64,000 nt of DNA from Bacillota bacterium. GTDB lineage: Bacteria > Bacillota_I > Bacilli_A > RF39 > UBA660. Position numbers and translations under genes: made by a program. Position 1 is the first letter of the stretch, and each line of letters begins with the position of its first letter. The stretch lies in assembly GCA_015059285.1 (NCBI GenBank), contig SVAS01000001.1, forward strand, positions 327,291-391,290. The letters run 5' to 3'. The notes below the pieces were generated by a model. It saw only the letters and a program-made list of their open reading frames with translations, did not search any database and had not been told where the DNA came from. Shown piece by piece: positions 2,464-19,563 of the stretch.

Positions 2464-2535
2464 TATTTATGTTGTACTTCTGTTCTAAAAAGTAAAAGAA
2501 TATATAATAAGACTTGTTAGAATAGGAGTAAGTTT

Positions 2536-3555: not shown

Positions 3556-3556
3556 A

Positions 3557-3579
3557 AATGAGTTAAGCTCATTTTTTTA
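3557..3579 (+). terminator. Rho-independent terminator after the pilin-like gene
   Basis: AATGAG-TTAAG-CTCATT hairpin followed by TTTTTTT. Confidence 0.55.
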
Positions 3580-3611
3580 TTTATTATAAATATACTTAAA
3601 TAGGTGGTAAT

Positions 3612-3842: not shown

Positions 3843-3890
3843 TTTTACTAAAATTAATAATAATGTTATAATGAATTTGGAGATGGTTAA

Positions 3891-4934
3891 ATGAAAAAGA
3901 TAACAATAAATATGCTTTCTAGTGCTGATAAAGTAGATGGTCAAGGAGTTGGAAGTGCTTATTTAGAACAAGTGGCTTTAGTAAAAGAAGGGGCAACTGA
4001 TATATTTGATGTAGTAATTAATAGTAAGAAAAAAACAGATATCATTCATCATCACACAATAGATTTGGATCATTTTTTCAAAATGCAGATGAGTGATGCT
4101 ATTAATGTTGCGTATGTACATTTTTTGCCTACAACTTTAGATGGTAGTATTAAATTACCTAAAGCTATTTTTCCAGTATTTAAAAAGTATGTAATTAGTT
4201 TTTATAATAGTGCGGATTATTTAGTTGTAGTAAATCCAAGTTTTATTAAAGAATTAGTATCATGTGGTATTGATGAAGAAAAAATAATATATATTCCAAA
4301 TTATGTTTCAAAAGAAAACTTTTATAGTAAGAAAAAAGCAGAAATATTAGAAATTAGAAAAAAATATGGTTTTACTGAAAAAGATTTTATTGTTTTAGGT
4401 GCGGGACAAGTACAAACTAGAAAAGGTGTTCAAGATTTTGTTGAAGTAGCGAAAAAAACTCCTGATATTTCTTATGTATGGTGTGGAGGTTTTTCGTTTG
4501 GCAAAATTACAGATGGTTATGAAGAATTGAAAGAAATAGTTGAAAACCCACCAAAAAATGTTAAATTTTTAGGTATAATTCCAAGAGAAGAAATGAACGA
4601 TATTTATAATATGGCGGACGTTTTATTTGTTCCTTCATATAACGAATTATTTCCGATGACTATATTAGAGGCAGTAAATTCTAAAAAGCCTTTGTTATTA
4701 AGAGATTTAGAATTATATGAAGAAATTTTATTTAAGAAGTATCTATTAGGTCATGATAATAAAGATTTTATAAAAAAATTAAATGAGTTAAAAGATAATA
4801 AAGAATTATATAAAAAATATAGCAATTATTCTAAAGAGATTAGCGAATTTTATTCTAAAGAAAATGTTTTAAATCTATGGATTGAGTTTTATACTAAAAT
4901 TTATAATGAACGTAAGGAAAAAATTAATTCATAA
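3891..4934 (+). CDS. Family 4 (GT-B fold) glycosyltransferase, CpoA/diacylglycerol-glycosyltransferase-like
   Basis: N-terminal MKKITINMLSSADKVDGQGVGSAY and C-terminal FVPS..ELFPMTILEAV motifs typical of retaining GT4 enzymes. Confidence 0.65.
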   Translation: MKKITINMLSSADKVDGQGVGSAYLEQVALVKEGATDIFDVVINSKKKTDIIHHHTIDLDHFFKMQMSDAINVAYVHFLPTTLDGSIKLPKAIFPVFKKYVISFYNSADYLVVVNPSFIKELVSCGIDEEKIIYIPNYVSKENFYSKKKAEILEIRKKYGFTEKDFIVLGAGQVQTRKGVQDFVEVAKKTPDISYVWCGGFSFGKITDGYEELKEIVENPPKNVKFLGIIPREEMNDIYNMADVLFVPSYNELFPMTILEAVNSKKPLLLRDLELYEEILFKKYLLGHDNKDFIKKLNELKDNKELYKKYSNYSKEISEFYSKENVLNLWIEFYTKIYNERKEKINS

Positions 4935-4941
4935 GTGCTTC

Positions 4942-4968
4942 AAAAACTAGTATTTAACTAGTTTTTTT
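4942..4968 (+). terminator. Rho-independent terminator (AAAAACTAGT-ATTT-AACTAGTTTTT)
   Basis: Inverted repeat plus T-run immediately after the GT4 stop. Confidence 0.55.
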
Positions 4969-4992
4969 GATATAATCTATTTTGGTGGTAGT

Positions 4993-5970
4993 ATGAATAA
5001 GTGCTTAAAATATATAATTAGTATCTTTATAATAAATTTACTAATTATAGGTTTTATATATAAAAAAAATAAACAAGAATTATATACAACTAATTTATTT
5101 TATATGGATACTTATATTAATATAAAGTTTTATAGTAATAATGAAAAAAATGCCATAAAAGCTTTAGAAGAAGCAGAAAATTTATATGAAACTTATCACA
5201 ATTTGACTGATCGTTATAATAGTTCTAGTGAACTTTATTTAGTAAATCATACATTCAGTGAACTTGAAATAGATGAAAGATTATATAATTTAATTGATTA
5301 TTCTAAAAATTGGCATTCTAAAAGTAATGGACTTTTTAATATTAATATGGGAGATGTGATTGATATTTGGAAAAAATATCGTGATAGTGGTACTGGAATA
5401 CCTACTAAAGAAGAACTTAAGGTTAATATAGATATAAATAGTTTTACTTTACTGGAAAATAATACAATTTTAAATAAAAATGCTAATATTGATTTAGGTG
5501 GCATTGTTAAAGGATATGTTACTAATTTAGTAGGAGAGGCTTTTTCTAAACTTGGAATAGAGGACTATATTATTAATGCTGGAGGTAATGTTTTAGTTGG
5601 TAAAAAAGCTAAAGGTAAATATAAAATTGGTATTGAGAGTCCTATAAATACTGGAGAAATATATCAAGTAGTTACTGGAAATAATATTAGTGTAGTAACA
5701 AGCGGTAGTTATGAAAGATTTTATGAGTATAATGGAAAAATGTATCATCACATTATTAATCCTAATACTTTGTATCCAAGTGGATTTATGAAAAGTGTTA
5801 CTGTTGTTTGTGAAGATAGTGCTTTAGCTGATATATTATCTACAACTTTATTTTTAATGCCTATTGAAGATGGTAAAAATTATTTAAAACAATTTGAAAA
5901 TGTAGAAGCTGTTTGGTTTGATAATAATAACAATATAATAAAATCAGAGGGTTTTAATAAATATGAATAA
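4993..5970 (+). CDS. apbE: FAD:protein FMN transferase (ApbE family), membrane-anchored
   Basis: ApbE signatures: MDTYINIKFY..., DLGGIVKGYV, and a C-terminal ...DILSTTLFLM segment. N-terminal hydrophobic anchor. Confidence 0.8.
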   Translation: MNKCLKYIISIFIINLLIIGFIYKKNKQELYTTNLFYMDTYINIKFYSNNEKNAIKALEEAENLYETYHNLTDRYNSSSELYLVNHTFSELEIDERLYNLIDYSKNWHSKSNGLFNINMGDVIDIWKKYRDSGTGIPTKEELKVNIDINSFTLLENNTILNKNANIDLGGIVKGYVTNLVGEAFSKLGIEDYIINAGGNVLVGKKAKGKYKIGIESPINTGEIYQVVTGNNISVVTSGSYERFYEYNGKMYHHIINPNTLYPSGFMKSVTVVCEDSALADILSTTLFLMPIEDGKNYLKQFENVEAVWFDNNNNIIKSEGFNKYE

Positions 5971-6322
5971 AACTGATATAAAACTAATAGGTATTATTTT
6001 ATTAATCGCGTTAATCTTTCTATTAAGTTTTAAATTGTTTGAAAAAAATGATAATAAGCAAGCCATAGTATATTATGAAAATAAAAAAGTATTAACGGTT
6101 AATCTTAATGAAAAAAAAGAATATAAAGTAGATGGTTATAATGGTGAAGTTATTATTATTGTTAATAATGGGAAAATAAAAGTAGAACAAGAAAATAGTC
6201 CTTTGCATTTATGTTCTAAACAAGGGTATATTAGTAAGTCTTATGAAACAATAGTATGCTTACCAAATAAAATATCAATTAAAATAATAGGAAATGAAGA
6301 ATTAGATGTAGTAGTAAATTAG
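5963..6322 (+). CDS. NusG domain II-containing small membrane protein (ApbE/Gx-transporter-associated)
   Basis: N-terminal TM helix. Position between apbE and the Gx-transporter gene is the conserved synteny for this family. Overlaps the apbE stop by 8 nt. Confidence 0.55.
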   Translation: MNKTDIKLIGIILLIALIFLLSFKLFEKNDNKQAIVYYENKKVLTVNLNEKKEYKVDGYNGEVIIIVNNGKIKVEQENSPLHLCSKQGYISKSYETIVCLPNKISIKIIGNEELDVVVN

Positions 6323-6329
6323 GTGATTT

Positions 6330-6824
6330 ATGGAAATAAAAAAATATGCAAGATTATCACTTTTATTAGCGCTTTCTGTAGTTTTAAATTTAATAGAAAG
6401 TTCAATTCCTATTTTTAATGGTTTTATACCAGGATTGAAGCTTGGTTTGGCCAATACAGTTATTTTATTTGTTTTATATGTTTTTTCTTTTAAAGATGCT
6501 TTATATGTATCGATAACAAGAGTATTTATTGTTGGTATACTCAGAACTGGATTATTTTCAATTACATTTTTCTTTAGTTTAGGGGGAGCAATTTTAAGTA
6601 TACTTGCTATGAGCATATGTAAAAAAATATCTAAACTATCAATTATAGGAACTAGTATTATTGGTTCGATTTTCCATAGTTTAGGTCAAATATTAATAGC
6701 TATTCTATTAATAAAAACAACTAATATGATTTATTATTTACCATGGTTACTTTTATTTTCAATTCCAACAGGTATAATTACAGGTTTAATTACAAAAGAA
6801 TTAATTAAGTATTTTCAAAAATAA
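6330..6824 (+). CDS. Gx transporter family protein (heptaprenyl diphosphate synthase component I-like membrane protein)
   Basis: 164-aa polytopic membrane protein, MEIKKYARLSLLLALSVVLNLIESSIP..; typical partner of ApbE/FMN-binding proteins. Confidence 0.6.
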   Translation: MEIKKYARLSLLLALSVVLNLIESSIPIFNGFIPGLKLGLANTVILFVLYVFSFKDALYVSITRVFIVGILRTGLFSITFFFSLGGAILSILAMSICKKISKLSIIGTSIIGSIFHSLGQILIAILLIKTTNMIYYLPWLLLFSIPTGIITGLITKELIKYFQK

Positions 6825-6893
6825 AAATAGATACTTGAAATAAAATAAAAATTATTATACAATTATATTGTTATATGATCGAGGAGGTTAATT

Positions 6894-7367
6894 ATGAAAA
6901 AGATTTTAGCATTTGTTGCACTTATTTGTTTAATAGGTATTTCTGGATGTACACCAGTAGAAGAAGGAATTTATAAAGAAGGAACATATTATGGAACAGC
7001 AACTGATAATTATGGTGGTGAAACAAATACAGCTACTGCTATTGTTTATGTAGATGCTTCTGGAGTAATTAAATCCGTTACTTTAGATACTACTTATGTC
7101 AAAGATGGTGTTGTTACTACTAAAAAATCATTAGGTAATGAATATGGTATGAAAGGTGTTTCTGCTTCTAAAGGAACTATTGCAGGTGGTGCTGAATGGT
7201 TTGAACAAGTAGCAAATTTAGAAAAGAAGATTGTTTCAGAACAAGGTTTAGATTGGTTAGTTTGGTCTGATACAGACAAAACAGTTACTGATTCTGTAAG
7301 TGGTGTAACAATTAAAATCAATGCTTTAGTTGAAGCAGCAAACAATGCAATTAATCAAGCAAAATAA
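6894..7367 (+). CDS. FMN-binding domain lipoprotein (extracytoplasmic flavoprotein, PplA/RnfG-like FMN_bind)
   Basis: Lipobox LIGISGC. Gly/Thr-rich FMN_bind-like sequence T.TDNYGGETNTATAIVYVDASGVIKSV. Directly downstream of apbE. Confidence 0.65.
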   Translation: MKKILAFVALICLIGISGCTPVEEGIYKEGTYYGTATDNYGGETNTATAIVYVDASGVIKSVTLDTTYVKDGVVTTKKSLGNEYGMKGVSASKGTIAGGAEWFEQVANLEKKIVSEQGLDWLVWSDTDKTVTDSVSGVTIKINALVEAANNAINQAK

Positions 7368-7402
7368 TTATGTAAATTAAAATTACTGTTAAAGCAGTAA
7401 TT

Positions 7403-7428
7403 TTTTTGTTTATATAATTAAATTGTAT
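7403..7428 (+). terminator. Rho-independent terminator (ATTACTG-TTAAAG-CAGTAAT plus T-run)
   Basis: Inverted repeat and TTTTTTT after the FMN-binding gene stop. Confidence 0.6.
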
Positions 7429-7783
7429 TAGCATATTTTATGTCGTATAATGTATATAATAGCAAGCCTTTTAGCTATGAGTATATAAATGAAATTAAAA
7501 ATAGAATTTTTGTAGTTAGTAGTATATTTCTATTTTAGGTGATTTATATTATTTAGCTGTAAAAATAAATGATACATAGATTTTGCAGTATTTTCTAGTA
7601 TGTATTTATAAGGAATTGCTCTGAAATGAGGAATTCAATGATAATTAAAAAATACTGCACTAAAAAATTATTGTTTCAAAACTTAAAAAAATGTAAAGCA
7701 AATTGTTTTTCAATTTTAATATGGAAAATAATTTGTTTTTGTTTTGTAATAAAAGGTAAATCTAATTGTAGATCACCCCCTTT

Positions 7784-7812
7784 TATCAATTTAATACGAA
7801 ATTAAATTGATA
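7784..7812. promoter_or_regulatory. Perfect 12-bp inverted repeat TATCAATTTAAT-acgaa-ATTAAATTGATA, candidate operator ending 1 nt before the RBS of the sigma-like regulator gene
   Basis: Seen directly in the sequence: the right arm is the exact reverse complement of the left arm, ends 1 nt before GGAGG, and is 13 nt upstream of the ATG at 7825. Confidence 0.55.
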
Positions 7813-7824
7813 GGAGGAATATAT

Positions 7825-8310
7825 ATGGCAAAAATGCCTAAAAGAAGAAAAAATAAGGATAATCCTTATACTCTAGAATACATAGAAGATAAAAACATTT
7901 ATAAAGTTAATTTTAAAGATAACAAAGGAAAATTAAATACGTTAGAAATAAGTGCTGATGTATATAAAGCAATGGATAAATTTGAACTAGAAGACATATC
8001 TCAAATGCATCAATTTGAGCGTCATATAGAACATTCTGAACTATTTGAAGGAACATTAAATGAAAGAGCTGTGGACAAGCCTCTTGCAGTAGAAGAAATA
8101 GTTGAAAATACTATTATAAATGAAGAACTTATAAGGGCAATTGGTGGTTTATCGGAAGTACAAAAAAGAAGAATAAAGTTATATTATTTTGAAGGTTTAA
8201 CACAAAAAGAAATCGCTAATAGAGAAGGAACTTCTTTGAGGGCAGTACAATATACTTTAAATAGCGCAATTAATAAATTGAAAGAAATTCTAAAAAATTT
8301 GCAAATTTGA
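7825..8310 (+). CDS. Sigma-70 region-4-only transcriptional regulator, phage ArpU/RinA-like or TcdR-like late/toxin-gene activator
   Basis: C-terminal HTH LSEVQKRRIKLYYFEGLTQKEIANREGTSLRAVQYTLNSAINKLKE is sigma region 4-like. No region 2 recognisable. Start trimmed to MAKMPKRR after GGAGG. Confidence 0.6.
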   Translation: MAKMPKRRKNKDNPYTLEYIEDKNIYKVNFKDNKGKLNTLEISADVYKAMDKFELEDISQMHQFERHIEHSELFEGTLNERAVDKPLAVEEIVENTIINEELIRAIGGLSEVQKRRIKLYYFEGLTQKEIANREGTSLRAVQYTLNSAINKLKEILKNLQI

Positions 8311-8337
8311 CTTCGTAAAATTGCTTTTGAGTGGGGA

Positions 8338-8374
8338 AACAGGTGAAAGGATAGATTGTATCCTTTCACCTGTT
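8338..8374 (+). terminator. Very strong 14-bp perfect hairpin (AACAGGTGAAAGGA-tagattgta-TCCTTTCACCTGTT) with a weak U-tract; terminator or RNA-processing/regulatory stem-loop
   Basis: Perfect inverted repeat 27 nt after the regulator stop; the downstream T-run is poor (CTTTGAAAA). Confidence 0.5.
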
Positions 8375-8687
8375 CTTTGAAAATTGAATAATGATAATTG
8401 AATACATAATGCTTCTTTTAAGCACGTTAGTAAGTTCGCTTGCGACTAATACTTGACTATGAATGCTAACAGATTATTAGCAATGCAATGATGAAGAAGT
8501 GTGATAATGATACTTCCACCTAGCGACAGTCTCAAACAATCGGAGTGGTTCTGATAAATACAGAAAGGTGAAATCCCTATGGTGCTGACATATCATCAGC
8601 CATTCAATTATCATGTGTAATAAAATTTTAGAAGAATTGCTAAATATTAGACTAAAACATAAAAAATATAGAAAGGTCGTGTAACGT

Positions 8688-9287
8688 ATGAACGAAACAG
8701 AACAAACTACAACTAATACAGGAGATTTTACTTTAGAAGATATTTATTTTAAAGATGCATTTACCCAAACTGAGGATAAATTAAATTTAGAAGTTGATAA
8801 TGCAAATATTAGTTGTTTAACTTCAAAAAACAATAAATTTAGTCTAGATGAGGATGGAAATTTAATTGTTAATAGCATCACATGCAGTCAAAGTGGGGAA
8901 ACAAGTGAAAGTTTGGATTTTAATCAAATATATCCAATTGGGTCAATTTACTTATCGGTAAACGATAGCAACCCTTCAATTTTATTTGGTGGTATTTGGG
9001 AACAACTTAAAGATCGTTTTTTGTTGGGTGCGGGAGATAATTATGCTAATACTTCTACTGGTGGTGAAGCATCTCATATTTTAAGTGTGTCAGAAATGCC
9101 GGCTCATAATCATAGAATTGGTTATGACCAAATATGGGGATATGGTGGTACTGCAAGTATTGCTTTAACTTCTGGTGGACCTTATTATGTGAGTTCAACA
9201 AATTATATTGGAAACACTGGCGGAAATCAAGCACATAACAATATGCCGCCTTATTTAACCGTATACATGTGGAAAAGAGTTAGTTAA
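8688..9287 (+). CDS. Phage tail-collar domain protein (tail-fiber-like, receptor-binding-type module)
   Basis: YPIGSIYLSVNDSNP..FGGIWEQLKDRFLLGAG....GGEASHILSVSEMPAHNH....GGNQAHNNMPPY matches the Collar domain consensus (G.W..L..RFLLG...GGE..H.L...EMP.H.H). Confidence 0.75.
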   Translation: MNETEQTTTNTGDFTLEDIYFKDAFTQTEDKLNLEVDNANISCLTSKNNKFSLDEDGNLIVNSITCSQSGETSESLDFNQIYPIGSIYLSVNDSNPSILFGGIWEQLKDRFLLGAGDNYANTSTGGEASHILSVSEMPAHNHRIGYDQIWGYGGTASIALTSGGPYYVSSTNYIGNTGGNQAHNNMPPYLTVYMWKRVS

Positions 9288-9336
9288 TTAATATATTACA
9301 ATTCTTCTAAAATGTATAATTTAAAGGAGAAATTTT

Positions 9337-12300
9337 ATGAAAGAAATAGAATTAAAAGAGTTAAGAAAAAAAAGAGAGAAACATTTTCTACAGGAAAATG
9401 GTAATATCGTAGCAAAAATATATGATGATGATGTACATTTTTTTAAAGATGGAAAATATGAAGAAATTGACAACACAATAATAATCAAAGATAATTACTA
9501 TACCAATAAGAGTAATGATTATAATGTATATTTTGGTAATGATAGTTATTTGATGAGAATGGAAAAAGATGATTGTTTTCTTAAATTTAAATTAGAAAAT
9601 GGTAATCATGATATAGTAAAAAAAGAAAACGGAAATGTTTGCTATGAAAATATATTAGATAACGTAGATATAAAATATTTTATTAAGTCTAATAAAGTTA
9701 AAGAAGATATTATTATTAAAAACAAAGAGGCAAACATTAAAAAAGTAAGTTTTATTATTGAAACCAACTTATCTTTATATGTGGTTAATAATAAAATTAA
9801 TGCGTTTAAAAATGATGATATTATTTTTGTTTTAGATGCTCCTTTCATGTATGATGCTAATGGTAACATAAATAAAAATATTTATTATGAATTAAAAAAA
9901 ACAGACAATCTTTATAAATTAGATTTGACATTAGATGAAAAATGGTTAACCCAAGCTGCTTATCCAGTTATAATTGACCCTACTATTACTGAGTATAGTG
10001 AAAATGATAGTGTAGTTGACACTTATATTTATCCTGGGGATACTGGTGTTGATAGAAATAGTCAGGACATTTTAAAAGCTGGTGTTGAAAGAATAAATGG
10101 CGTAGATAGAATTAATAGGACTCTATTAAGGTTTAACTTGCCGGAAATTGGAACCGGTAGCCAAATTATTAAAGCAGAATTGAGATTAATTGGTTACCCA
10201 CATATAGGAGAAACTTCTGAAAGTGATATCGTAAACATTCATAGTCTTACAACAGAATGGGAAGAAGATGAAGCTAATTGGGAAAATATGAATGATAAAT
10301 TTAATCCTAGATTAGAAGGTTCTTTCTATAGTGCCAGAAGTGTTAGAATGACATTAGAAGATGTTACTCCAAGAGAATGTACAGAAGATATAACAAATTT
10401 AGTAAAGAAGTGGTATTCAAGTAAAGAAAATTATGGAATAATGCTAAAAATGAATACAGAAGTGTATAGAAGTGACGTTATTCCAGCATTTTTTTCAAAA
10501 AACAATTCAGTATCTAATTATAATCCTAAACCACTTTTAGCAATTACATATAGAAACCAGAATGGTTTGGAAGATTATATGAATTATAAGAAACAAGCAT
10601 TTAGTAATGGAATGTCATATGTTAATACTTACAATGGAAATTTAACTACAATTTTTGATGTTGGTGCAACTATTGGTGGGATTAATCCGGTTAATTTAAG
10701 TTTAGTCTATAATACTAACGATGTTGTGTTGGAAAATAATTTAGGTGATGGTTTAGGATATAGATTTAATTTTAATCAAACGATAAAGCTCTTACCAATA
10801 GAAGAAGTTGAATATTTAGAATATATTGATGGTGATGGAACAATTCATTATTTTTACGAAACTGATGGAATCTACAAAGACGAAGATAACTTAAATATGA
10901 TTATAACTAAAGTTAATAATGAATACATTTTAGCGGATAAGAATGATAATAGAATGAAATTTGCAATTATCAATGAAGTTGGCTATTTAACTGAATTAGA
11001 AAATTTGAACCATGATAAAATTCAAATATTATATAATTCTAATAATCAAATAATAAAGATAATAGATCCAAATCTAGAAGAAATAAATATTTCAAGAGAA
11101 ACAAATAAAACAATCATTAGTAGTCCTGGAAAAACAGCTAATTTGATTTATAACGGAAATAAGCTCATATCTATACAAACTATTTTAGGTAATACAACAA
11201 TTACATATAATGATAAAAATATTATAGAAAGTATAACAGATGAGAATAATCAAAAATTGGCATATCAATATTATGAACAACAACCTTATCGTATGAAGAC
11301 AGTGACCGAATATGGCTTAAACAACGAAATGGGTAATTATTTTACTTTAGAATATAATTTTAATTCAACAACTATAGTTGATAATAAAGATAGAGCAAAT
11401 ACAATGACTTTTAATAATTTTGGAAATGCTGTTTCTATTACAACCTTAAAATCTAAAGAAGATGTAAAAGAAGCGTATGGGAAAAGGCTAATTTATGGTA
11501 GTAGTTATATAACTTCAGAAGGAGAGTATGCGCCTTATAAAAACAAACTACTTAACGAAGAAGTTTTTAATAAATGTATCAAAAATCACTTTCCTAACTC
11601 TAACTTTGAGGAAGATGACTTTGTATTTACCCCATGCGCGAACAATATTTTATACATTGTTGATGACGAATACTTAGAAGGTCCAAAATCTTTAGCGTTT
11701 ATAACTAAAGATTATAATCAATATATAACAAAAACAATATCTGTCCCTAAAGGAAAATATTACACATTTAGTTTTAATTTAATCAACCACATGTCTTTTA
11801 CAATATCACTTTCATATAAGGATGCCAATGATTATACTGTTAGCGAACGAACTTATGTTGACTATATAAATTTAGAATTTGAAAAACAGGAAGTAAGCAT
11901 TTTCTATCCTGAAGATGCAAAATCAGATTTAACAATAATGATTTCCGCTTATGAAATGGGGACATCCTATATAAATTCTATTCAATTAGAAGAAGGTGAT
12001 GTTGCTAATAGTTATAATTACATTTCTAATTCAGATTTTTCAAATGGTCTTAGTGACTGGGAATTAAGAGCACAAATTAATGATCAAGGGGACTATGTTA
12101 ATGCTGATGATAAATTTGAAGTAGTTACATTAGACAATGGATTAAATGCACTTAAAGTCAAGATGAATCCACTATATTCTACTGGTTTTTCAAAAACGTT
12201 TAAAGTTAGAGGTAAACCTGGTGATATTTTTACAATTGCTTTTTGGTATAAACATCAAGGATATAAAGGTTCGGATTACGCACAAGCGCCGAGACATAAT

Positions 12301-15300
12301 AACGTTATTATTAGATTTAACTATATTGACCAAAGTTATGGACATTGTATATCACCAAGTAGTTCATTTAATCCGAATGAAAATGAATGGCAATATTTTT
12401 CTGCCGATTTCGTAGCAGAAAAAGAATTTGATTCACTATATTTATCATTTTCACAAGGTTTTAATGGCAATGATTTTTATATAACTAATTTAAGTTTAGT
12501 TAAAGATAGTGGTAGTGTTAGTTTTAATTATGATGAAAAAGGAAATATAATTGGAAAGAGCGGTTTAAATAACGAATTAAGCGAATTTAATTATGATAAG
12601 AATAATCAATTAATAAAAATGACTGATTCCATGGGAAACAATCACACGTTTGAATATGATAAAGATGTTAGTGATAGAGTTATAAATGGCATATCTGCAA
12701 CTGGCATATCTAATAAAATAAAATATAATAGCGATGGAAATCCAATTGTTACAAAAATAGTTAATCATGGTAAAAATGAAGAAATATTATCCGGATTTTA
12801 TAAAGTTAAAGCAAAAGGTGCTAATAAATATATAAAAAACAATTATAACGTTTTAATATTAAAAGAAACTAATTGTAATCATCATTTATGGTTGCTTGAA
12901 AAAGTTGATGAAAACTATAGGATAAAACATTCTTTATTAAATAAATATATAAATATTTTGAATAATACGTTAATATTATCAGAAGAATATGCATTATTCA
13001 GTTTAATAAAAAATCAATGTAATAGTTTTTTGATCAAAGAAATAGAAAGTGGTAACTACATTAAAAACAATAATGATGTATTGGAAATTACTTCTTTGAT
13101 TGAAGATGATGATAGTTTTGAATTTTATTTTGAAAATGGAAACGAACTATTTATAGAAAACAACGCTGAATATACATCGGATAAAAGATTTATTAAAGAG
13201 ACTACGGATACTTTATTACATAAAACAGAATATGAAGTTGATGAGGGGACTGGATTAATTAAATCCGTAATAAATCCTAAAGGACAATTAACAACTTATG
13301 AATACAACGATAAACAACAATTATCAAAAATAATCACTAATGCAAAAACTATTGATTATGTTTATAATAGTAACAATTTGTTGGATAAGATAGTAGAAGG
13401 TAACAAAAGCTACCAATTTCAATATGATAATTTCTTAAATGTTAATCAAATTAAAATTGGCGATAATATTACCTTAATAACCAATAATTATGCACCAAAT
13501 AATGGAAATTTAATTAATTCAGTATATGGAAATAATGATATTGTTAGTTATGAATATGATGATTTTGATAGAGTCAGCAAAATATTTAGAATGAATGATA
13601 CCTATAATTATAAATATGATAATAATGGTAATGTTGCAAAAGTTTTTGGCAATGTAGACAAATGGAAATATTTCTATGATTCTGCCAAAAGACTGAATGA
13701 ATATAGATTAAATAATTTTAAAATAAAATATTTTTATGATAAAAATGATAACCTATATAGAAAAACTTATTGGCTTGATGACACAAATATCAACATTTGG
13801 AATAATGTACCTAGCTCAAGAATAGCTATTTATGGTATAGAGCAAATCAACGAATTTAATGATGATGACTGTATTACAAAAACGACAATAGGAAATGTTT
13901 CTCTTGATTATGATTATGATTATTTAGGTAGATTAACAAGCAGAAGTATAAATAATAATTATAAAACAGATTATCAATATGTAACTAATGGCAAAAGAAC
14001 ATCACTATTAGTAAAAAGTATTAAAAACAATAATGATTTATATAATTACAGATATGATAAATTAAATAATATCACTCACGTATATTACAACAATAGTCTT
14101 ATAAATAGGTATTATTATGATGAGTATAATGAACTTATTAAAGAAAACAATTATGTAACTAATGAAACAACAGAATATACTTATGATAACTATGGAAACA
14201 TATTAAATAAAAAAGTATATGCATTAAATACTAATAACTTATTAAGTCAAGACACTTATGAATATAATAATTCTAATTGGGTTGACCAATTAACTAGATT
14301 TAATAATGAAACTATCGTGTATGATGAAATAGGAAACCCACTTGCTATTGGTTCAAAAACATTATCATGGATAAACGGAAGACAATTGAGTGGTTATAAT
14401 GACTCAACAATTAATGCTAACTACAGATACGATAAAGATGGATATAGGATAAGTAAAATTGTAAATAATCAAGAAACAAAATATTACCTTGAAAATAATA
14501 AAATAATACTTGAAATTAAAGGTGATGATATTATATACTATATGTATAATGAAGTTGATGACATAATAGGATTTAAATATAATAATGATGTATATTATTA
14601 TATAAAAAATGTTAAAAATGATATAATTGGTATATTAGATAGCAGTCATACTCAAGTCGTAAAATATAATTATGATTCTTGGGGCAATATTATATCAATA
14701 ACAGATAATAATAATAATGACATAAGTAATACTTTAAATCATATAGGCAATATTAATCCATTTAGATATAGAAGTTATTATTATGATTCGGAAACAAATT
14801 TTTATTATTTAAACTCAAGATATTACAATCCTGTTTGGGGTAGATTTTTGAATGCTGATGGCATTGTTAATGATGGAGAAATTATAGGCTGCAATTTGTT
14901 CGCTTATTGTAATAATAATCCTATAAATTTAGTTGACCCTACTGGAGAGCTTGCACTTGCAGGCACTATAGGCGGAGTTTTGGGTGTGGTTGCAATTGTT
15001 GGTTCTATTTATTATGCAAGCAAAAGTCTGATAAAAAGTGCCACAAGTATTCCGAATGTAATATATGATACTAAAACAAAAATAGAAAATGCTATTGGTT
15101 CCATAGAGATTAACAAAACAGAAACTAAAACACAAACGCCTGCAATATCCGTTCCTAAAATAGAAAGTATTGACTTGGGCACACCTAAGTATAAACCTTG
15201 TACTGAGGCATGGCTATCTAATGGCGACGTGGCAAGAGGAAATAGATTAACAATTGATGAATCATATATCCATGTAAGCAATGGTCATGATGTAATGTGT

Positions 15301-15456
15301 GACAATCAGTTTTCTGCACATCAAGTAGCACAAAGATTTGTTGGTTATATTGGTCCGGAAATAGACAAAAAACAATTGCCTGGCAATAAGTATTATTGTC
15401 ACTATCATCCGGATAGAACGTCGCATAGACATATTTGGTTCTATTCAATGCAATAA
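9337..15456 (+). CDS. RHS/YD-repeat polymorphic toxin, 2039 aa. No signal peptide. N-terminal DNRLRE-like domain, about 30 YD repeats, RHS core ending at a DPTGE autoprocessing motif, then a C-terminal TM helix and a toxin tip of unknown family.
   Basis: Repeated YxYDxxGN/R motifs (e.g. YDEIGNPLAIGSKTLSWINGRQLSGY...YRYDKDGYRISKI). RHS core signature YYNPVWGRFLNADGIV...NPINLVDPTGE. C-terminal 170 aa comprise LALAGTIGGVLGVVAIVGSIYY... through ...YYCHYHPDRTSHRHIWF. Confidence 0.9.
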   Translation: MKEIELKELRKKREKHFLQENGNIVAKIYDDDVHFFKDGKYEEIDNTIIIKDNYYTNKSNDYNVYFGNDSYLMRMEKDDCFLKFKLENGNHDIVKKENGNVCYENILDNVDIKYFIKSNKVKEDIIIKNKEANIKKVSFIIETNLSLYVVNNKINAFKNDDIIFVLDAPFMYDANGNINKNIYYELKKTDNLYKLDLTLDEKWLTQAAYPVIIDPTITEYSENDSVVDTYIYPGDTGVDRNSQDILKAGVERINGVDRINRTLLRFNLPEIGTGSQIIKAELRLIGYPHIGETSESDIVNIHSLTTEWEEDEANWENMNDKFNPRLEGSFYSARSVRMTLEDVTPRECTEDITNLVKKWYSSKENYGIMLKMNTEVYRSDVIPAFFSKNNSVSNYNPKPLLAITYRNQNGLEDYMNYKKQAFSNGMSYVNTYNGNLTTIFDVGATIGGINPVNLSLVYNTNDVVLENNLGDGLGYRFNFNQTIKLLPIEEVEYLEYIDGDGTIHYFYETDGIYKDEDNLNMIITKVNNEYILADKNDNRMKFAIINEVGYLTELENLNHDKIQILYNSNNQIIKIIDPNLEEINISRETNKTIISSPGKTANLIYNGNKLISIQTILGNTTITYNDKNIIESITDENNQKLAYQYYEQQPYRMKTVTEYGLNNEMGNYFTLEYNFNSTTIVDNKDRANTMTFNNFGNAVSITTLKSKEDVKEAYGKRLIYGSSYITSEGEYAPYKNKLLNEEVFNKCIKNHFPNSNFEEDDFVFTPCANNILYIVDDEYLEGPKSLAFITKDYNQYITKTISVPKGKYYTFSFNLINHMSFTISLSYKDANDYTVSERTYVDYINLEFEKQEVSIFYPEDAKSDLTIMISAYEMGTSYINSIQLEEGDVANSYNYISNSDFSNGLSDWELRAQINDQGDYVNADDKFEVVTLDNGLNALKVKMNPLYSTGFSKTFKVRGKPGDIFTIAFWYKHQGYKGSDYAQAPRHNNVIIRFNYIDQSYGHCISPSSSFNPNENEWQYFSADFVAEKEFDSLYLSFSQGFNGNDFYITNLSLVKDSGSVSFNYDEKGNIIGKSGLNNELSEFNYDKNNQLIKMTDSMGNNHTFEYDKDVSDRVINGISATGISNKIKYNSDGNPIVTKIVNHGKNEEILSGFYKVKAKGANKYIKNNYNVLILKETNCNHHLWLLEKVDENYRIKHSLLNKYINILNNTLILSEEYALFSLIKNQCNSFLIKEIESGNYIKNNNDVLEITSLIEDDDSFEFYFENGNELFIENNAEYTSDKRFIKETTDTLLHKTEYEVDEGTGLIKSVINPKGQLTTYEYNDKQQLSKIITNAKTIDYVYNSNNLLDKIVEGNKSYQFQYDNFLNVNQIKIGDNITLITNNYAPNNGNLINSVYGNNDIVSYEYDDFDRVSKIFRMNDTYNYKYDNNGNVAKVFGNVDKWKYFYDSAKRLNEYRLNNFKIKYFYDKNDNLYRKTYWLDDTNINIWNNVPSSRIAIYGIEQINEFNDDDCITKTTIGNVSLDYDYDYLGRLTSRSINNNYKTDYQYVTNGKRTSLLVKSIKNNNDLYNYRYDKLNNITHVYYNNSLINRYYYDEYNELIKENNYVTNETTEYTYDNYGNILNKKVYALNTNNLLSQDTYEYNNSNWVDQLTRFNNETIVYDEIGNPLAIGSKTLSWINGRQLSGYNDSTINANYRYDKDGYRISKIVNNQETKYYLENNKIILEIKGDDIIYYMYNEVDDIIGFKYNNDVYYYIKNVKNDIIGILDSSHTQVVKYNYDSWGNIISITDNNNNDISNTLNHIGNINPFRYRSYYYDSETNFYYLNSRYYNPVWGRFLNADGIVNDGEIIGCNLFAYCNNNPINLVDPTGELALAGTIGGVLGVVAIVGSIYYASKSLIKSATSIPNVIYDTKTKIENAIGSIEINKTETKTQTPAISVPKIESIDLGTPKYKPCTEAWLSNGDVARGNRLTIDESYIHVSNGHDVMCDNQFSAHQVAQRFVGYIGPEIDKKQLPGNKYYCHYHPDRTSHRHIWFYSMQ

Positions 15457-15482
15457 TTAAAATAGAAATTGGGGGAATTTAT

Positions 15483-16238
15483 ATGTATATAAACAAGGTA
15501 ACTACTGAGGTTTATAAAAAGATACTTGATTATAAGTTAGAAAAGTGCAATTATGCATCTTTGACTGTATATACAGATCAACATTTAGATGAACATCTAG
15601 ATATTATTAATATTATTACATCCAATCCTAAATACTCTAAACAATATATTTTATCTAATTATTCAGAAATACTGTTAGGACAAATTTATAATGATTTTAA
15701 GAATGATAAAAGAATATATAATGTTAAGGAACATGTAAGAAAAATAAAAAAAAGTTCTTTTAGAAAATGTGAATCTAATGATGAATTGGAAAACTTTCTA
15801 TATCAGCATGAATCTGAAAATAGAAAATCATCTATATTTAGCGCCATACAAAGCTTTGTTTATAATAATTTTACAACCCAATTTATTGAAGAATATAGGA
15901 GTAAAATTGTAAAAATAAAGGATGAATTATATGAGCATGAACTCACACCATTCCATAAAAAAGAAGCGTTTTATAAAAAAGAATATATATTTCAGCTTGA
16001 TGATGAATTAAAACAAATTATACATAACACTTATTTATATGACTGGAGTTTTCCAATGAAATTAGAAGATTTAAGCTTGTTTGTTGAAAATTATTTGTGG
16101 ATATATTCAGTTACACATGAAGAACTATGCTATATTTATTGTGAAACAGAGGAAGAATATAATTATTTAAAATCAATGGGTGTTGAGTTCTATGAAGAAC
16201 ACTTTATTCCACAAGAAAAGCAAGAAATCGTTTTTTAA
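15483..16238 (+). CDS. Putative cognate immunity protein for the RHS C-terminal toxin (cytoplasmic, 251 aa)
   Basis: Sits immediately downstream; the long ORF's ATG at 15435 overlaps the RHS stop. The likely true start, ATG at 15483, follows RBS GGGGGA. No TM or signal peptide. The toxin-then-immunity order is typical. Confidence 0.6.
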   Translation: MYINKVTTEVYKKILDYKLEKCNYASLTVYTDQHLDEHLDIINIITSNPKYSKQYILSNYSEILLGQIYNDFKNDKRIYNVKEHVRKIKKSSFRKCESNDELENFLYQHESENRKSSIFSAIQSFVYNNFTTQFIEEYRSKIVKIKDELYEHELTPFHKKEAFYKKEYIFQLDDELKQIIHNTYLYDWSFPMKLEDLSLFVENYLWIYSVTHEELCYIYCETEEEYNYLKSMGVEFYEEHFIPQEKQEIVF

Positions 16239-16253
16239 TAAAATAAAACAAAA

Positions 16254-16283
16254 AACAATCAAATTAAATTTGATTGTTTTTTG
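16254..16283 (+). terminator. Rho-independent terminator (AACAATCAAAT-TAA-ATTTGATTGTT plus T-run) separating the toxin-immunity unit from the lysis cassette
   Basis: 11-bp perfect inverted repeat followed by TTTTT. Confidence 0.6.
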
Positions 16284-16466
16284 TATATAGGATATGATAT
16301 TTGAAATCAAATATAACACACAATATATTCTATAGTTTATGATGGATTTGATGGTATGATAATGATTAAATAAAAATTTATGCAGTAATATAATAGTAAA
16401 CATTTTAAAAGGACACAATCTTAAACTTGATTAAGTCTTTTTATTTTTATTATGGAGGTGATATAT

Positions 16467-16772
16467 ATGATAGAAATAATATGTAGATATTGGCTAGAAA
16501 TATTATTAACTACTATCACAAGCGGTTTTATATATGTTATCAAAGAACATATAGGATTAAAAAATGGAGTGAAAGCTTTACTTAGAAATGAGATAGTTAG
16601 AATATATGAAACGTATTCTAAATTAGGATATTGTCCAAGTTATATGAAAGAAAATGCAAATGAAATTTATATTAATTATCATAGATTAGAAAAAAATGGT
16701 ATGATAACATCTATGCTAGAAGAAATAAATAAATTACCTGTTGAGATAAAAGTGGAGGTTATAAATGCATAA
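16467..16772 (+). CDS. Small N-terminally membrane-anchored protein, holin-associated (phage lysis-module accessory protein)
   Basis: Start trimmed to MIEIICRYW.. (ATG at 16467 after GGAGGTG). One N-terminal TM segment. Its stop overlaps the holin start. Confidence 0.45.
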   Translation: MIEIICRYWLEILLTTITSGFIYVIKEHIGLKNGVKALLRNEIVRIYETYSKLGYCPSYMKENANEIYINYHRLEKNGMITSMLEEINKLPVEIKVEVINA

Positions 16773-16995
16773 AATTTTAAACGACAAGTATGTAAGTAAA
16801 ATTATAAAAACATTTATTGAAGGTTTTCTTGCATCTTTAATTGTAAGTTTTCAGACCATAGAAAATTTATCTGATTTGAATTTAATTAAAACAGTATTAG
16901 TTGGTGCAATTGCTATGGGGATTTCAGCTGTACTAAACTTATTTCAAATGTATTTAAATAAAGAGAAAGTTGAATATGGAAAAAGCAATACTTAA
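16765..16995 (+). CDS. Phage holin, phi-LC3/LL-H-like family
   Basis: 76 aa. SKIIKTFIEGFLASLIVSF fits the ..KTF.Q.F.A.L motif of this holin family. Two hydrophobic segments and a charged C-terminus (NKEKVEYGKSNT). Confidence 0.65.
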   Translation: MHKILNDKYVSKIIKTFIEGFLASLIVSFQTIENLSDLNLIKTVLVGAIAMGISAVLNLFQMYLNKEKVEYGKSNT

Positions 16996-17782
16996 TTTAG
17001 ATATATTAAATATAAGTCAAGGAATGAATGATAGCTTTTCCCATCCAGGTAATTTAGCAATAGATGTAACAGGTTGTTCTTATTTAAAAGCCCCATTTAC
17101 AGGTGTTATAAAAAAGATTTATTCAGAGTGCAATGCTGTTTGGCTAGAAAGTGTAGAAAAGGTAGAGTATGCAGATGGAACTATAGATTATATGACAATT
17201 ATGACAATGCATGATAATGATATATCAGATCTTTATGTTGGTAAATTAATAAAACAAGGAGATATATTTTATCAACAAGGAATGAAAGGTTACGCAACAG
17301 GACCACATATTCAGATTTCAGTAGGAAAAGGTAAATTTAGTGGTTCGGGTTGGTATGAAAATAAACAAGGTTCTTGGTGCATTAATAATCAATATGATAT
17401 AACTAGGGCACTATTTTTACACACCGATGTTAGAATAATTTATAGTATGTATAATTGGAAAATAACTGTTTATTCAAAACTTGTTAATAAAAATAAGTCT
17501 ATTGATGAAATGGCTAATGAAGTTATTCAAGGTAAATGGGGAAATAATCCTGAAAGAAAACAAAGATTAATTCAAGCTGGATATGATTATACAGCTATAC
17601 AAAATAGAGTTAATGAGTTATTAAGTACTTCATCTGAAATAATACATACAGTAGAAAAAGGCGAATATTTAATCAAAATAGCTGCAAAGTATAACAAGAA
17701 TTGGCGTAAAATTGCAAGCGATAATAATATAAAATCTCCGTGGATAATATATCCAGGGCAAAAGTTAATAATATATAAATAG
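16976..17782 (+). CDS. Endolysin: N-terminal M23 metallopeptidase domain, CW_7 (Cpl-7) cell-wall-binding repeat, C-terminal LysM
   Basis: M23 HxxxD/H.H-type motifs (SFSHPGNLAIDVTG; GPHIQISV). CW_7 repeat DEMANEVIQGKWGNNPERKQRLIQAGYDYTAIQ. LysM HTVEKGEYLIKIAAKYNKNWRKIASDNN...YPGQKLII. The ORF-track start is a TTG at 16970; the ATG at 16976 with RBS AAGAGAAAG is preferred. Confidence 0.8.
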   Translation: MEKAILNLDILNISQGMNDSFSHPGNLAIDVTGCSYLKAPFTGVIKKIYSECNAVWLESVEKVEYADGTIDYMTIMTMHDNDISDLYVGKLIKQGDIFYQQGMKGYATGPHIQISVGKGKFSGSGWYENKQGSWCINNQYDITRALFLHTDVRIIYSMYNWKITVYSKLVNKNKSIDEMANEVIQGKWGNNPERKQRLIQAGYDYTAIQNRVNELLSTSSEIIHTVEKGEYLIKIAAKYNKNWRKIASDNNIKSPWIIYPGQKLIIYK

Positions 17783-17789
17783 TTGAGTG

Positions 17790-17819
17790 AGATAACCATT
17801 TTGGTTATCTTGCTTTTTT
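17790..17819 (+). terminator. Rho-independent terminator after the endolysin gene (AGATAACCA-TTTT-GGTTATCT plus T-run)
   Basis: Inverted repeat followed by TGCTTTTTTATTT. Confidence 0.6.
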
Positions 17820-17896
17820 ATTTGGTAAATTTCACGTTTTTTTCTTGACTAAATAGTTTTTTTAATATAAACTTATTTAGGATGCTAGGTGATGAT

Positions 17897-18595
17897 ATGA
17901 AAAAAATATTAATATTAATTACACTAATGATTGTTACTTTATTTAGTTTTTTTTCATTTAAAGATAAAAATAAAATTGAAGCAAAAGAAGAAAATCTTTG
18001 TATAAAAGATTGTATGTCTGGTGATAAAATTAGACTAAAAGATGGTAGTTACTGGCATATAATTACAACTTCTTCTGAAAAAACAATTTTATTTAGTGAT
18101 GCAAATATTGATTTAGAAGGTAATTATTTACCTGTAAATTATATGAGTTATGAAAATACTGGACAACCTGTAGCATTTGACACAATAAATGCTAGAACAA
18201 AAGAAAAAAATCCTTATTGTATTTATCCTGATTTAGGTTGTAGTGCTTATGAAAAAAATGCTAAAGATGTTTTAGAAGATAGTAATATTAAAAAAATAAT
18301 TGATGAAAATTTTGTTCCTAAAATTCAAGAATTATTTAAAACGGAAGATATAACAGTAAGACTTTTAAAAACAAAAGAATTTTGGTATTTACAAAGATTA
18401 GAAGTTATAAAAGAAGAAAAATTTTCTTGGTTATATCATAGTGCTTATTGGCTTATGGACGCGTATAGTCCTTATAGTGTATATTTATTAAAAGAAGGGG
18501 ATAAAAGTCTTTCTGTTTTAGCGCCTTATATTTTATATCAAGCTGGAATTAGACCGGTTATCGAACTTGATTCAAATCTTTTATTTGAAGCTTAA
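17897..18595 (+). CDS. Secreted/exported hypothetical protein (signal peptide) at the island edge
   Basis: MKKILILITLMIVTLFSFFSF signal-like N-terminus; no family recognised; start trimmed to the ATG at 17897. Confidence 0.5.
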   Translation: MKKILILITLMIVTLFSFFSFKDKNKIEAKEENLCIKDCMSGDKIRLKDGSYWHIITTSSEKTILFSDANIDLEGNYLPVNYMSYENTGQPVAFDTINARTKEKNPYCIYPDLGCSAYEKNAKDVLEDSNIKKIIDENFVPKIQELFKTEDITVRLLKTKEFWYLQRLEVIKEEKFSWLYHSAYWLMDAYSPYSVYLLKEGDKSLSVLAPYILYQAGIRPVIELDSNLLFEA

Positions 18596-19563
18596 TAAAA
18601 AATATTAAATAAAAAGTATACTAACGTTCCTGAAATTAAAGCATGAATAATACGGGCAAATAAAAACGGCAAATATTTAATTTTAGTATCACCTAAAATA
18701 CTCATTATTTGCATATGCCCACTTAGTCCACCAAAAGAAATAATCATTGTGCATATAGTTGTTTTTATTTTAAGAGATATTGGCAGATTACTTATAGATT
18801 TTAATCCTTGTGTTATTTCAAAAATACCATTTAAGATACTTTGACGGTATAAACTTAAATTAATATTGCAATTAATGATAGTTGTAATAACTAAAAAGAA
18901 AGTTATTACTCCTAATATTAAAAGTAATGTATTAATAGTATTAATTAAAGAATTAGTAAGAATGTTTCCAAAACTTTTATTATTACTAATTCTTTTATTA
19001 TGCATAGCTAAAATAGCTTTTTGAAAATTTATTTTTGTATTATTTTCTTTTGTAGGATAATAATTCCTAAATATAATTCCAATAATAATATTAGCTATAT
19101 AGTGACAAAATAGGATTAAAATACCAACATTTTTATTATTTAAAAATAAAATTGAGACAGTGCCTAAAATAAATAGAGGATTAGAAAAATGGGTAAACAT
19201 AAGTAGTTTAGTACCTTCTTTTTCATCTATAAGATTGTTTTGATATAATTCTTTTATATACTTGGCATTTGATGGCATTCCTGATATAATACTCATTATA
19301 AAGATAAATGAACAAACACCCCTTGTTTTAAATAATAAGTTCATTAAGGGTTTGAAAATTTCACTTAATAATTCTACAAATCCATAATTAATTAATAGTT
19401 CGGATAAAACAAAAAAAGGAAATAGAGATGGGAAAATATTATTTTTCCATATATCAAACGAAAAGGCTACAGAAGTTAAAATATTAGAAGATCTTATTAG
19501 TATTTGGCTTCCAATAAATATTAAAATTATTATAATAATAATACTGGTACTAATTTTTTTCAT
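18592..19563 (-). CDS. ylbJ: Sporulation integral membrane protein YlbJ (nucleoside-recognition-domain membrane protein)
   Basis: Polytopic membrane protein with YlbJ-like sequence (..GVCSFIFIMSIISGMPSNAKY.., ..SGHMQIMSILGDT..) and conserved adjacency to ylbL. Confidence 0.65.
   Translation of the reverse strand: MKKISTSIIIIIILIFIGSQILIRSSNILTSVAFSFDIWKNNIFPSLFPFFVLSELLINYGFVELLSEIFKPLMNLLFKTRGVCSFIFIMSIISGMPSNAKYIKELYQNNLIDEKEGTKLLMFTHFSNPLFILGTVSILFLNNKNVGILILFCHYIANIIIGIIFRNYYPTKENNTKINFQKAILAMHNKRISNNKSFGNILTNSLINTINTLLLILGVITFFLVITTIINCNINLSLYRQSILNGIFEITQGLKSISNLPISLKIKTTICTMIISFGGLSGHMQIMSILGDTKIKYLPFLFARIIHALISGTLVYFLFNIFY

Follow-up and report, generated by a model that had tools for sequence, protein, structure and literature searches.

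A three-gene lysis cassette, composed of genes for an accessory membrane protein, a holin and an endolysin, lies beside an RHS polymorphic toxin gene and its putative immunity gene in a 64,000-nucleotide stretch of contig SVAS01000001.1 from a Bacillota bacterium. This stretch is called the window here; island coordinates are positions in it, and L001-L112 are labels of the compared loci and contigs. The comparison of these loci suggests, with a probability of about 0.6, that the cassette is the lytic release module of a mobile, phage-derived, bacteriocin-like RHS weapon. That it would act as the release module of the toxin at all, with lytic and non-lytic variants summed, seems quite probable. 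A functional tie between the cassette and the toxin-immunity pair is well supported, because the synteny extends across species and chromosomal sites, the lysis genes have been replaced by non-orthologous ones and the RHS protein is signal-less.

The low-GC window carries an island of about 11 kb, in which every gene lies on the forward strand and which is set between core genes. The upstream flank consists of an ApbE-like gene and a gene for an FMN-binding lipoprotein, the latter ending at 7367, and the downstream flank of ylbJ (18592-19563, minus strand), a SepM/YlbL-like protease gene and mutS. The order within the island is a sigma-70 region-4 gene, a Gp10_C gene, the RHS gene, the putative immunity gene, accessory, holin and endolysin (Table 1). 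A preliminary description of this DNA had located the cassette outside any prophage and directly 3' of the toxin-immunity pair, with a tail gene as the nearest upstream phage-type gene, and these statements hold. No structural, packaging or replication genes occur at 7.4-18.6 kb of the window, and no phage structural gene lies between the Gp10_C gene and the cassette. The island contains no integrase; head, tail and packaging genes contiguous with the cassette were not found in it, and the Gp10_C gene is its sole phage-tail part. A search for att-like direct repeats flanking the island found none.

The open reading frames of the cassette were verified as three tightly overlapping genes, with overlaps of 8 nt (accessory/holin) and 20 nt (holin/endolysin). 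Alternative starts are present at 16452 and 16467 for the accessory and at 16970 and 16976 for the endolysin. The accessory likely starts at 16467, since GGAGGTG sits upstream, and the endolysin likely at the ATG at 16976. The latter gives a 268-aa protein, the form called on public contigs in 39 collection blocks; 24 of these contigs were read, and L001, L002 and L004 show the island layout of the window. An exact look-up of the 270-aa form with a TTG start gave no match. The window holin has no Pfam match and reaches the 'holin' family phrog_443 at E = 2e-3; 10 of 12 members of its family match phrog_443, the best at E = 4e-8. A small holin with two transmembrane segments directly 5' of a modular endolysin, as found here, is the canonical phage holin-endolysin arrangement. 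Among the endolysin domains named earlier, CW_7 (E = 3.5e-18) and LysM (E = 8e-12) score above the Pfam cut-offs. Peptidase_M23 stays below its cut-off (13.5 against 28.7 bits), yet the N-terminal 165 residues and the C-terminal, LytM-like domain of phi29 gp13 are homologous (PDB 3CSQ, E = 1.6e-14).

The distribution of the cassette was followed with a profile of the accessory protein, scanned against one genome per species, and the resulting loci were annotated with the window proteins. The scan gave 28 loci in metagenome-assembled genomes of gut 'Bacilli/Tenericutes' and a single IMG/VR viral contig. The linkage of the modules, and of the cassette to RHS genes in particular, is found again in over 25 loci of various gut Bacilli, at varied chromosomal sites with differing flanking genes; conservation of this kind was the check proposed in the preliminary description. 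RHS proteins of the recurring loci are 40-68% identical to that of the window. The complete order from sigma gene through Gp10_C, RHS and immunity genes or orphan cassettes to accessory, holin and lysin is present in L005, L006, L013, L014, L020-L022, L025, L026, L035, L039, L041 and L043, and the order from sigma to lysin is also counted in L046 and L051. A partial order, cut by contig ends, is found in L015, L018, L023, L024, L027 and L033.

Comparisons of the window with L041 and L043 gave ratios of nonsynonymous to synonymous substitution (dN/dS) of 0.05-0.13 for all three lysis genes; gene by gene, the values are 0.06-0.11 for the accessory, 0.06-0.13 for the holin and 0.08-0.14 for the whole lysin. 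Those of Gp10_C and RHS are 0.2-0.44. The lysis cassette is intact and under purifying selection, and degenerate copies are a minority among the relatives, so that the pseudogenisation considered earlier did not emerge. Several loci carry unrelated lysis genes at the same place: two holin families in addition to Phage_holin_4_1, and lysins of the M23 (two types), GH25 and Amidase_2 families. This replacement argues that selection keeps a lysis cassette there, whichever one it is.

The same association emerges from the toxin side. The window RHS protein consists of a signal-less conserved N-terminus, a DNRLRE domain, the RHS shell, an RHS-associated core with the motif DPTG at about residue 1867, and a variable C-terminal toxin of 173 aa. 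RHS/YD repeats, a core with DPxG, a variable C-terminus and a downstream immunity gene place it among the RHS polymorphic toxins. No Sec signal and no LXG/WXG domain were detected in the window RHS family, and 15 of 15 homologues, that of the window included, start with MKEIEL..REKHFL and lack a hydrophobic segment there. The published Gram-positive RHS/WapA toxins are Sec substrates (PMC12704120); the Sec signal peptide that WapA-type proteins have at the N-terminus is absent from the window protein and its 14 homologues.

The N-terminal 400 residues were scanned against metagenome contigs, a sample described as unbiased, and two groups were obtained. In the close, signal-less group a lysis cassette lies downstream of the RHS gene in L045, L046, L047, L051 and L055 and upstream of it in L049, L054 and L098; L044, L048 and L065 were excluded from this tally for insufficient flanking sequence. 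L047 has an Amidase_2 lysin and a Phage_holin_4_1 holin, of the TcdE family; in other loci the lysin is GH25 or an M23 enzyme of another kind. In the distant group, at 25-35% identity (among others L061-L064 and L067-L097), all eight N-termini read carry a Sec signal-peptide extension, and no Gp10_C, sigma or lysis gene is detectable by BLAST within 10 kb of its RHS genes. These distant relatives are often followed by orphan RHS fragments. As far as the sequences tell, signal-less and signal-peptide RHS families are split cleanly by the presence of lysis genes.

A contig of the same species, L003, carries an alternative allele at the same chromosomal site (1311-9388, corresponding to window 7807-16238). 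Its RHS protein is only 53% identical to that of the window and differs in the C-terminus; it is accompanied by a different immunity gene (137 aa) and a sigma gene of reduced length (116-122 aa), whereas Gp10_C is 100% and the lysis genes are 97-100% identical. The contrast is what a polymorphic toxin locus with an unchanging release arm would show. Homologues of the window immunity protein follow a homologous toxin C-terminus in L012 (49% identity) and RHS genes in L024, L025 and L027 (25-30%).

The preliminary description regarded the cassette as a stand-alone unit, transcriptionally separated from the toxin-immunity pair by a strong terminator. The terminator, T1, is present, but the separation is not sustained. 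A second hairpin with a U-tract, T2, was absent from that account; it is weaker than T1 and located directly before the ribosome-binding site. T2 is the window copy of a hairpin conserved in RHS-type loci, where hairpin and U-tract end 16-28 nt before the accessory ATG; in the relatives nothing else in front of the cassette is conserved. Hairpin calls rest on stems of at least 9 bp together with shuffle z-scores, as stems of 6-7 bp are too permissive in AT-rich DNA. Such stems are present in 17 of 25 RHS-type loci, and RNAfold adds hairpins with interior loops in several others. The z-scores range from -1.9 to -5.6 in nine RHS-type relatives, whereas three phage-type loci gave +0.85, +0.6 and -0.7; no such hairpin was found in phage-type loci, in which the last tail-fibre gene is directly followed by the accessory gene. 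The structure is maintained between loci though the sequences differ.

The spacer between immunity and accessory genes measures 63 bp in L041, 88 bp in L043 and 103 bp in L003, with little beyond the hairpin and the ribosome-binding site. T1 is not present in L003, L041 or L043, and together with the 120-bp spacer it seems to belong to the window's own immunity cassette and not to the conserved arrangement. As the hairpin ends so close to the ATG, there is room only for a ribosome-binding site between them and none for a promoter, and the RHS operon's conserved promoter box is not repeated before the lysis cassette. The short spacers, the ATG-proximal hairpin and its absence from phages point to terminator read-through from the toxin operon. 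The likeliest layout is toxin, immunity, a leaky or antiterminated terminator and lysis genes. The colicin-type order and the hairpin adjacent to the ribosome-binding site are found in one co-oriented unit, along which the putative read-through would proceed.

The origin of the module is indicated by the viral contig L040, a siphovirus, whose late operon comprises the tail chaperone, tape measure, Dit, Tal, four tandem Gp10_C genes, accessory, holin and endolysin; L028-L032 share this layout. Since these three genes also stand at the end of the late operon in a real siphovirus, they are considered bona fide lysis genes: accessory, holin and lysin are a genuine phage lysis cassette, and Gp10_C is the tip of a tail fibre. 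The idea that RHS replaced a homologous tail protein was dropped, as its N-terminal 600 aa are dissimilar to the L040 tail protein preceding the Gp10_C genes. The RHS islands contain no head, tail-tube, packaging or replication genes. Beyond the lysin of L041 come a helix-turn-helix gene, another sigma-like gene, another copy of the pemK RNA, and the genes for PemK and a tyrosine integrase; L006, L049, L053 and L054 end in serine recombinases. These arms indicate that the module is the cargo of a small integrative element. The window copy is without a recombinase/PemK arm. The earlier wording that holin and endolysin were retained without a phage is right in that they lie outside any phage, and needs to be qualified, since the relatives show them as cargo of elements with an integrase or serine recombinases and PemK.

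Two other explanations bear on this origin. The island could be the decaying remnant of a mobile element or prophage, in which tail-fibre and lysis genes are leftovers, RHS and immunity an unrelated moron, and their adjacency functionless. Every phage-type part does have a counterpart at the end of the L040 late operon, the window copy has lost the recombinase/PemK arm found in L041 and L006, and L036, L008-L011 and L038 are degenerate copies. A remnant is nevertheless quite unlikely, given a minimal architecture that recurs over many species and sites at dN/dS of 0.05-0.13, lysis modules swapped non-orthologously, a hairpin limited to RHS-type loci and the clean division of signal-less from signal-peptide RHS by lysis genes. 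The cassette could also serve the element itself, with lysis freeing DNA or helper-phage particles for transfer of the island in a satellite-like manner and Gp10_C donated to the helper virion. This would agree with the integrase or serine recombinases and the second sigma/leader unit of the relatives, and with L017, which keeps sigma, Gp10_C and lysis genes without RHS. It is very unlikely for elements of about 15 kb that have no replication, packaging or capsid genes; moreover, the attenuating hairpin is seen only together with RHS and immunity, and the window copy, which has no recombinase, still keeps the cassette under selection.

Whether release would be lytic depends in part on the endolysin. 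In comparison with phi29 gp13, the window enzyme keeps H23, D30, H79 and H111, but the HxH motif reads HIQ, with Gln113 in place of its second His (H280 in gp13). This His is a zinc ligand in LytM and lysostaphin. Its replacement leaves the canonical zinc-ligand set of M23 enzymes incomplete in the window lysin. HxH is intact in phi29 gp13, in six island homologues, in the more distant lysins of L049 and L054 and in the endolysin of Clostridium phage Amboise; HIQ occurs in all 13 members of the 90% cluster. The Gln113 codon varies synonymously (CAG or CAA), and dN/dS of the M23 domain is 0.03-0.15. Because the Gln is common to the whole cluster, its codon varies in this way and the M23 ratios are low, the change from His to Gln is old and the domain still constrained. 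Of the features observed, only Gln113 would speak for attenuation or a non-lytic mode in the window clade.

Such a mode would resemble type 10 secretion, with the holin as conduit and a local opening of the wall through which RHS leaves living cells. The position of holin and endolysin genes outside a prophage and next to a signal-less cargo is compatible with it, a Gln conserved at the zinc-ligand position could mean attenuated wall cleavage, and the conserved extra membrane protein could modulate the holin. This mode is unlikely all the same. The relatives have standard, apparently fully active endolysins (GH25, Amidase_2, M23 with HxH), the cassette is the same as that of a lytic siphovirus, and a folded RHS shell of about 230 kDa far exceeds the known cargo of non-lytic holins. 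Yen-Tc, the RHS-containing system that has been studied best, leaves its producer through lysis (PMC10847048).

The accessory protein has an N-terminal transmembrane helix, and its sole PHROG match, phrog_4105, is a family of no assigned function. It has 122 homologues at 56-96% identity; the AlphaFold2 model (predicted local distance difference test score of 90) shows a long transmembrane helix and a helical bundle, and its matches in BFVD are small siphovirus proteins, some of them named holin. The accessory is far more conserved than the accompanying holins, which fall into two unrelated families. A holin-specific antiholin role is unlikely, because the same conserved protein precedes both families; its place as the opening gene of the lysis genes in a genuine siphovirus was also counted against this idea. 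The protein may act as another holin-like component or as a lysis timer. Truncated 5' accessory fragments adjoin orphan cassettes of RHS C-terminus and immunity gene in L036, L008-L011 (10001-10252), L034 and L038; from this neighbourhood, the accessory gene may be a downstream recombination anchor for cassette swapping.

For lytic release, the following course is proposed. The sigma-like regulator and the structured leader RNA would switch on a long operon encoding the Gp10_C partner, the signal-less RHS protein and the immunity protein. The majority of transcripts would end at the hairpin or hairpins 3' of the immunity gene, and a minor share would pass into accessory, holin and endolysin through leakage or antitermination. 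Once toxin has accumulated, the holin would permeabilise the membrane and the endolysin would open the wall. Lysis of the producer would free the cytoplasmic RHS protein of about 230 kDa, probably with the tail-fibre-tip protein as targeting subunit, and the immunity protein would shield kin cells. The observations on which this model is based are gene content, synteny, the conserved hairpin, the absence of a signal peptide and purifying selection. A wider proposal, that gut Bacillota hold a class of lysis-released, diffusible RHS bacteriocins with a Gp10_C receptor-binding subunit and a captured, hairpin-gated lysis cassette, carried on integrative elements with a sigma-like/pemK-RNA switch, is put forward tentatively and is rather doubtful in its full extent.

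Several findings weigh against lytic release of the toxin. The window lysin, without the canonical zinc-ligand His, may be weak or inactive. The signal-less RHS genes of L058 and L059 have no lysis cassette within 10 kb. Degenerate copies exist: the lysin of L036 is cut to 91 aa, and only accessory fragments are left in L008-L011, L034 and L038. L017 (8553-11373) has sigma, Gp10_C, accessory, holin and lysin genes without RHS. In the window, two hairpins 120 bp apart enclose a sigma-70-type match of 10/12 (16301-16329), compatible with a promoter of its own here; in this AT-rich DNA such matches are about as frequent as expected by chance (105 found, 101.7 expected). Finally, the released RHS protein would still have to enter a Gram-positive target cell.

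Two of these loci were characterized further. L036 (6138-10764) is a degenerate tandem copy adjoining the intact element L035 on one contig. L017 has no hairpin, and its flanks include the genes for ribosome recycling factor, exonuclease VII and SpoIVB; these core genes ruled it out as a phage-type locus and mark it as an RHS-less mini-island, which could be a deletion derivative or an ancestral scaffold.

The Gp10_C gene is found immediately 5' of the RHS gene in nearly all loci of the signal-less family. RHS-linked Gp10_C proteins have in common an N-terminal segment of about 80 aa (NLEV.N.N.SCITSKNNKF.LD..GNL.V; window 8688-8930), and the tandem Gp10_C proteins of the phage type match mostly residues ~80-199, two of them reaching back to residues 40 and 54. 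As a candidate adaptor, this segment could mediate docking to the RHS protein. The C-terminal toxin domain of RHS (residues 1867-2039, window 14935-15456) has no family match. It opens with a Gly-rich hydrophobic helix, LALAGTIGGVLGVVAIVGSIYYA, and comparable helices follow DPxG in L006 and L014.

The first gene of the island encodes the sigma-like regulator, and a gene of this type is likewise placed in L005, L006, L013, L014, L020-L022, L025, L026, L035, L041 and L046. Each of these sigma-like genes is followed by a conserved non-coding block of ~300 nt (window 8311-8687) with a terminator, the TCTTTGACAATT box and a structured leader. The box is nearly invariant in the 10 copies of alignment A4 and occurs once in the island. 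The Rfam pemK motif covers only the 3' part of the conserved leader of ~200 nt; in the window it scores 48.2 bits against a gathering score of 34.8, and compensatory changes support 29 of 44 predicted pairs of the leader. A match is found at the equivalent place in L005, L013, L014, L020, L021, L035 and L041, and in the window and the relatives examined the motif always lies downstream of a sigma-70 region-4 gene. L041 has one copy of the motif and leader before the RHS operon and a second before the PemK/integrase operon. The pair of protein and RNA is a candidate switch of integrative elements. It may be speculated that the leader confers antitermination at T1 and T2. The sigma/leader module is not phage-like: BLASTN of the leader against the phage collection gave no match, and the sigma-like protein had two weak matches only. 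At the other end of the island, ylbJ and the terminator of the lysin are separated by a gene for a secreted protein, which is found in the contigs L001-L004 of the same species and has no counterpart in any other island locus.

Table 1. Coordinates of the island features in the window and of related features in compared loci.
Feature	Position	Strand	Details
Sigma-70 region-4 (ECF-like) regulator gene, first of the island	7825-8310	+	Sigma70_r4_2 (Pfam) E = 1.6e-9; sigma70-ECF superfamily (NCBIfam) E = 4e-14
Terminator hairpin 3' of sigma gene	8333-8378	+	-26.7 kcal/mol, z = -6.2; conserved in alignment A4
-35-like box TCTTTGAAAATT (TCTTTGACAATT in relatives)	8374-8385	+	candidate promoter of the Gp10_C-RHS operon
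Conserved structured leader RNA	8405-8620	+	3' part 8504-8582 = Rfam pemK motif RF02913
Gp10_C (phage baseplate / tail-fibre-tip) gene	8688-9287	+	signal-less; Pfam Gp10_C E = 5.7e-22; PHROG tail and tail-fibre families
RHS polymorphic toxin gene	9337-15456	+	2039 aa; DNRLRE_dom E = 3.7e-21 and Rhs_assc_core E = 8e-19 (NCBIfam); RHS_repeat (Pfam)
Putative cognate immunity gene	15483-16238	+	no family match
Terminator T1, directly 3' of immunity gene	16248-16284	+	17-bp stem and U-tract; -17.1 kcal/mol, z = -6.0
Hairpin and U-tract T2	16406-16443	+	ends ~23 nt before accessory ATG; -12.5 kcal/mol, z = -2.2
Accessory gene, first of the cassette	16467-16772	+	single-pass membrane protein; phrog_4105 E = 1.6e-14
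Holin gene	16765-16995	+	76 aa; two hydrophobic segments, charged C-terminus; phrog_443
Endolysin gene	16976-17782	+	268 aa; gp13-type M23 (16976-17470), CW_7 (17504-17623), LysM (17645-17773)
Gln113 codon of endolysin	17312-17314	+	HIQ instead of HxH
Terminator T3, closing the lysis cassette	17785-17815	+	14-bp stem and U-tract; -19.4 kcal/mol, z = -6.1
Secreted protein gene	17882-18595		237 aa; DUF6273 match sub-threshold
pemK motif, single positions	L005 1628-1705; L013 916-971; L014 1557-1635; L020 1898-1953; L035 2002-2059; L022 12557-12637; L025 13818-13898		
pemK motif, two positions	L041 1445-1523 and 12167-12245		
Distant RHS relatives with Sec extension	L063, L064, L067, L073, L087, L095, L110, L112		

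The export of RHS proteins (>200 kDa) in Gram-positive bacteria is unsettled, and the published cases use Sec signal peptides or the type VII secretion system. The locus family described here suggests a third route, in which phage lysis genes have been domesticated for release, the operon follows the logic of colicins and a phage receptor-binding protein possibly serves as targeting subunit. The signal-peptide RHS homologues without a cassette and the true-phage cassette without a hairpin are natural controls for this proposal. The literature searched, the coverage of which is incomplete, yielded no account of a Gram-positive RHS system linked to a holin and an endolysin.

WapA-type RHS toxins have DNRLRE, the RHS shell, the RHS-associated core, a variable C-terminal toxin and a downstream immunity gene (PMC12704120) in common with the window protein, which differs in having no Sec signal peptide or cell-wall anchor, a constant Gp10_C partner and an adjacent lysis cassette. 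The genes xhlA-xhlB-xlyA of PBSX likewise encode a single-pass membrane protein, a holin and an endolysin in translationally coupled order. Unlike them, the window cassette lies outside a phage and behind a terminator, and its accessory has no XhlA match; such a match was obtained only in the distant analogue L049 (E = 1.7e-4, below the cut-off).

The pathogenicity locus (PaLoc) of Clostridioides difficile (tcdR-tcdB-tcdE-tcdL-tcdA) resembles the window island in parts: it, too, unites in one island a regulator of the alternative sigma type, a large toxin without a signal peptide, a holin of phage type and a relative of a phage endolysin (PMC12485765). In the window, however, the holin belongs to another family (phrog_443), the endolysin is of full length, an RHS protein accompanied by an immunity gene is the toxin, and the sigma-like protein matched just the generic sigma-70/ECF superfamily.

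The preliminary description had named type 10 secretion as the model for the cassette. The analogy to holin/endolysin-dependent toxin release, as in type 10 secretion systems (T10SS) and PaLoc, is reasonable, and the locus may belong to this class. Yen-Tc of Yersinia entomophaga, Serratia ChiWXYZ and Salmonella TtsA also have a holin and a peptidoglycan hydrolase outside a prophage and a large signal-less cargo, and both features, with their linkage, are found in the window. The Yen-Tc cargo, too, includes an RHS (TcC) shell, and it is set free when a subpopulation of specialised cells lyses in a manner dependent on holin and endolysin (PMC10847048). The window locus differs in its Gram-positive host, hence in having no spanin, in the interbacterial toxin with immunity, in the Gp10_C partner and in the extra membrane protein.

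A close likeness is to the colicin E2 operon (cea-cei-T1-cel), in which the lysis gene is reached only by rare long transcripts that pass T1 (PMC4353708). In both cases toxin, immunity, terminator and lysis genes follow each other on one strand, the lysis genes lie behind a hairpin without an evident promoter of their own, and freeing the signal-less toxin would kill the producer. The differences are a three-gene phage cassette in place of the small lipoprotein (bacteriocin release protein) of colicins, a Gram-positive host, an RHS shell toxin of ~230 kDa, and an element-encoded sigma-like regulator with a structured leader, where control of the LexA/SOS type was not identified. The locus would work like a colicin operon without being a member of the colicin family, from which its lysis function sets it apart. 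If this is true, holin/endolysin-dependent toxin release extends to interbacterial warfare in the gut microbiota, and these islands would be a Gram-positive counterpart of colicins and of the T10SS release of Tc toxins.

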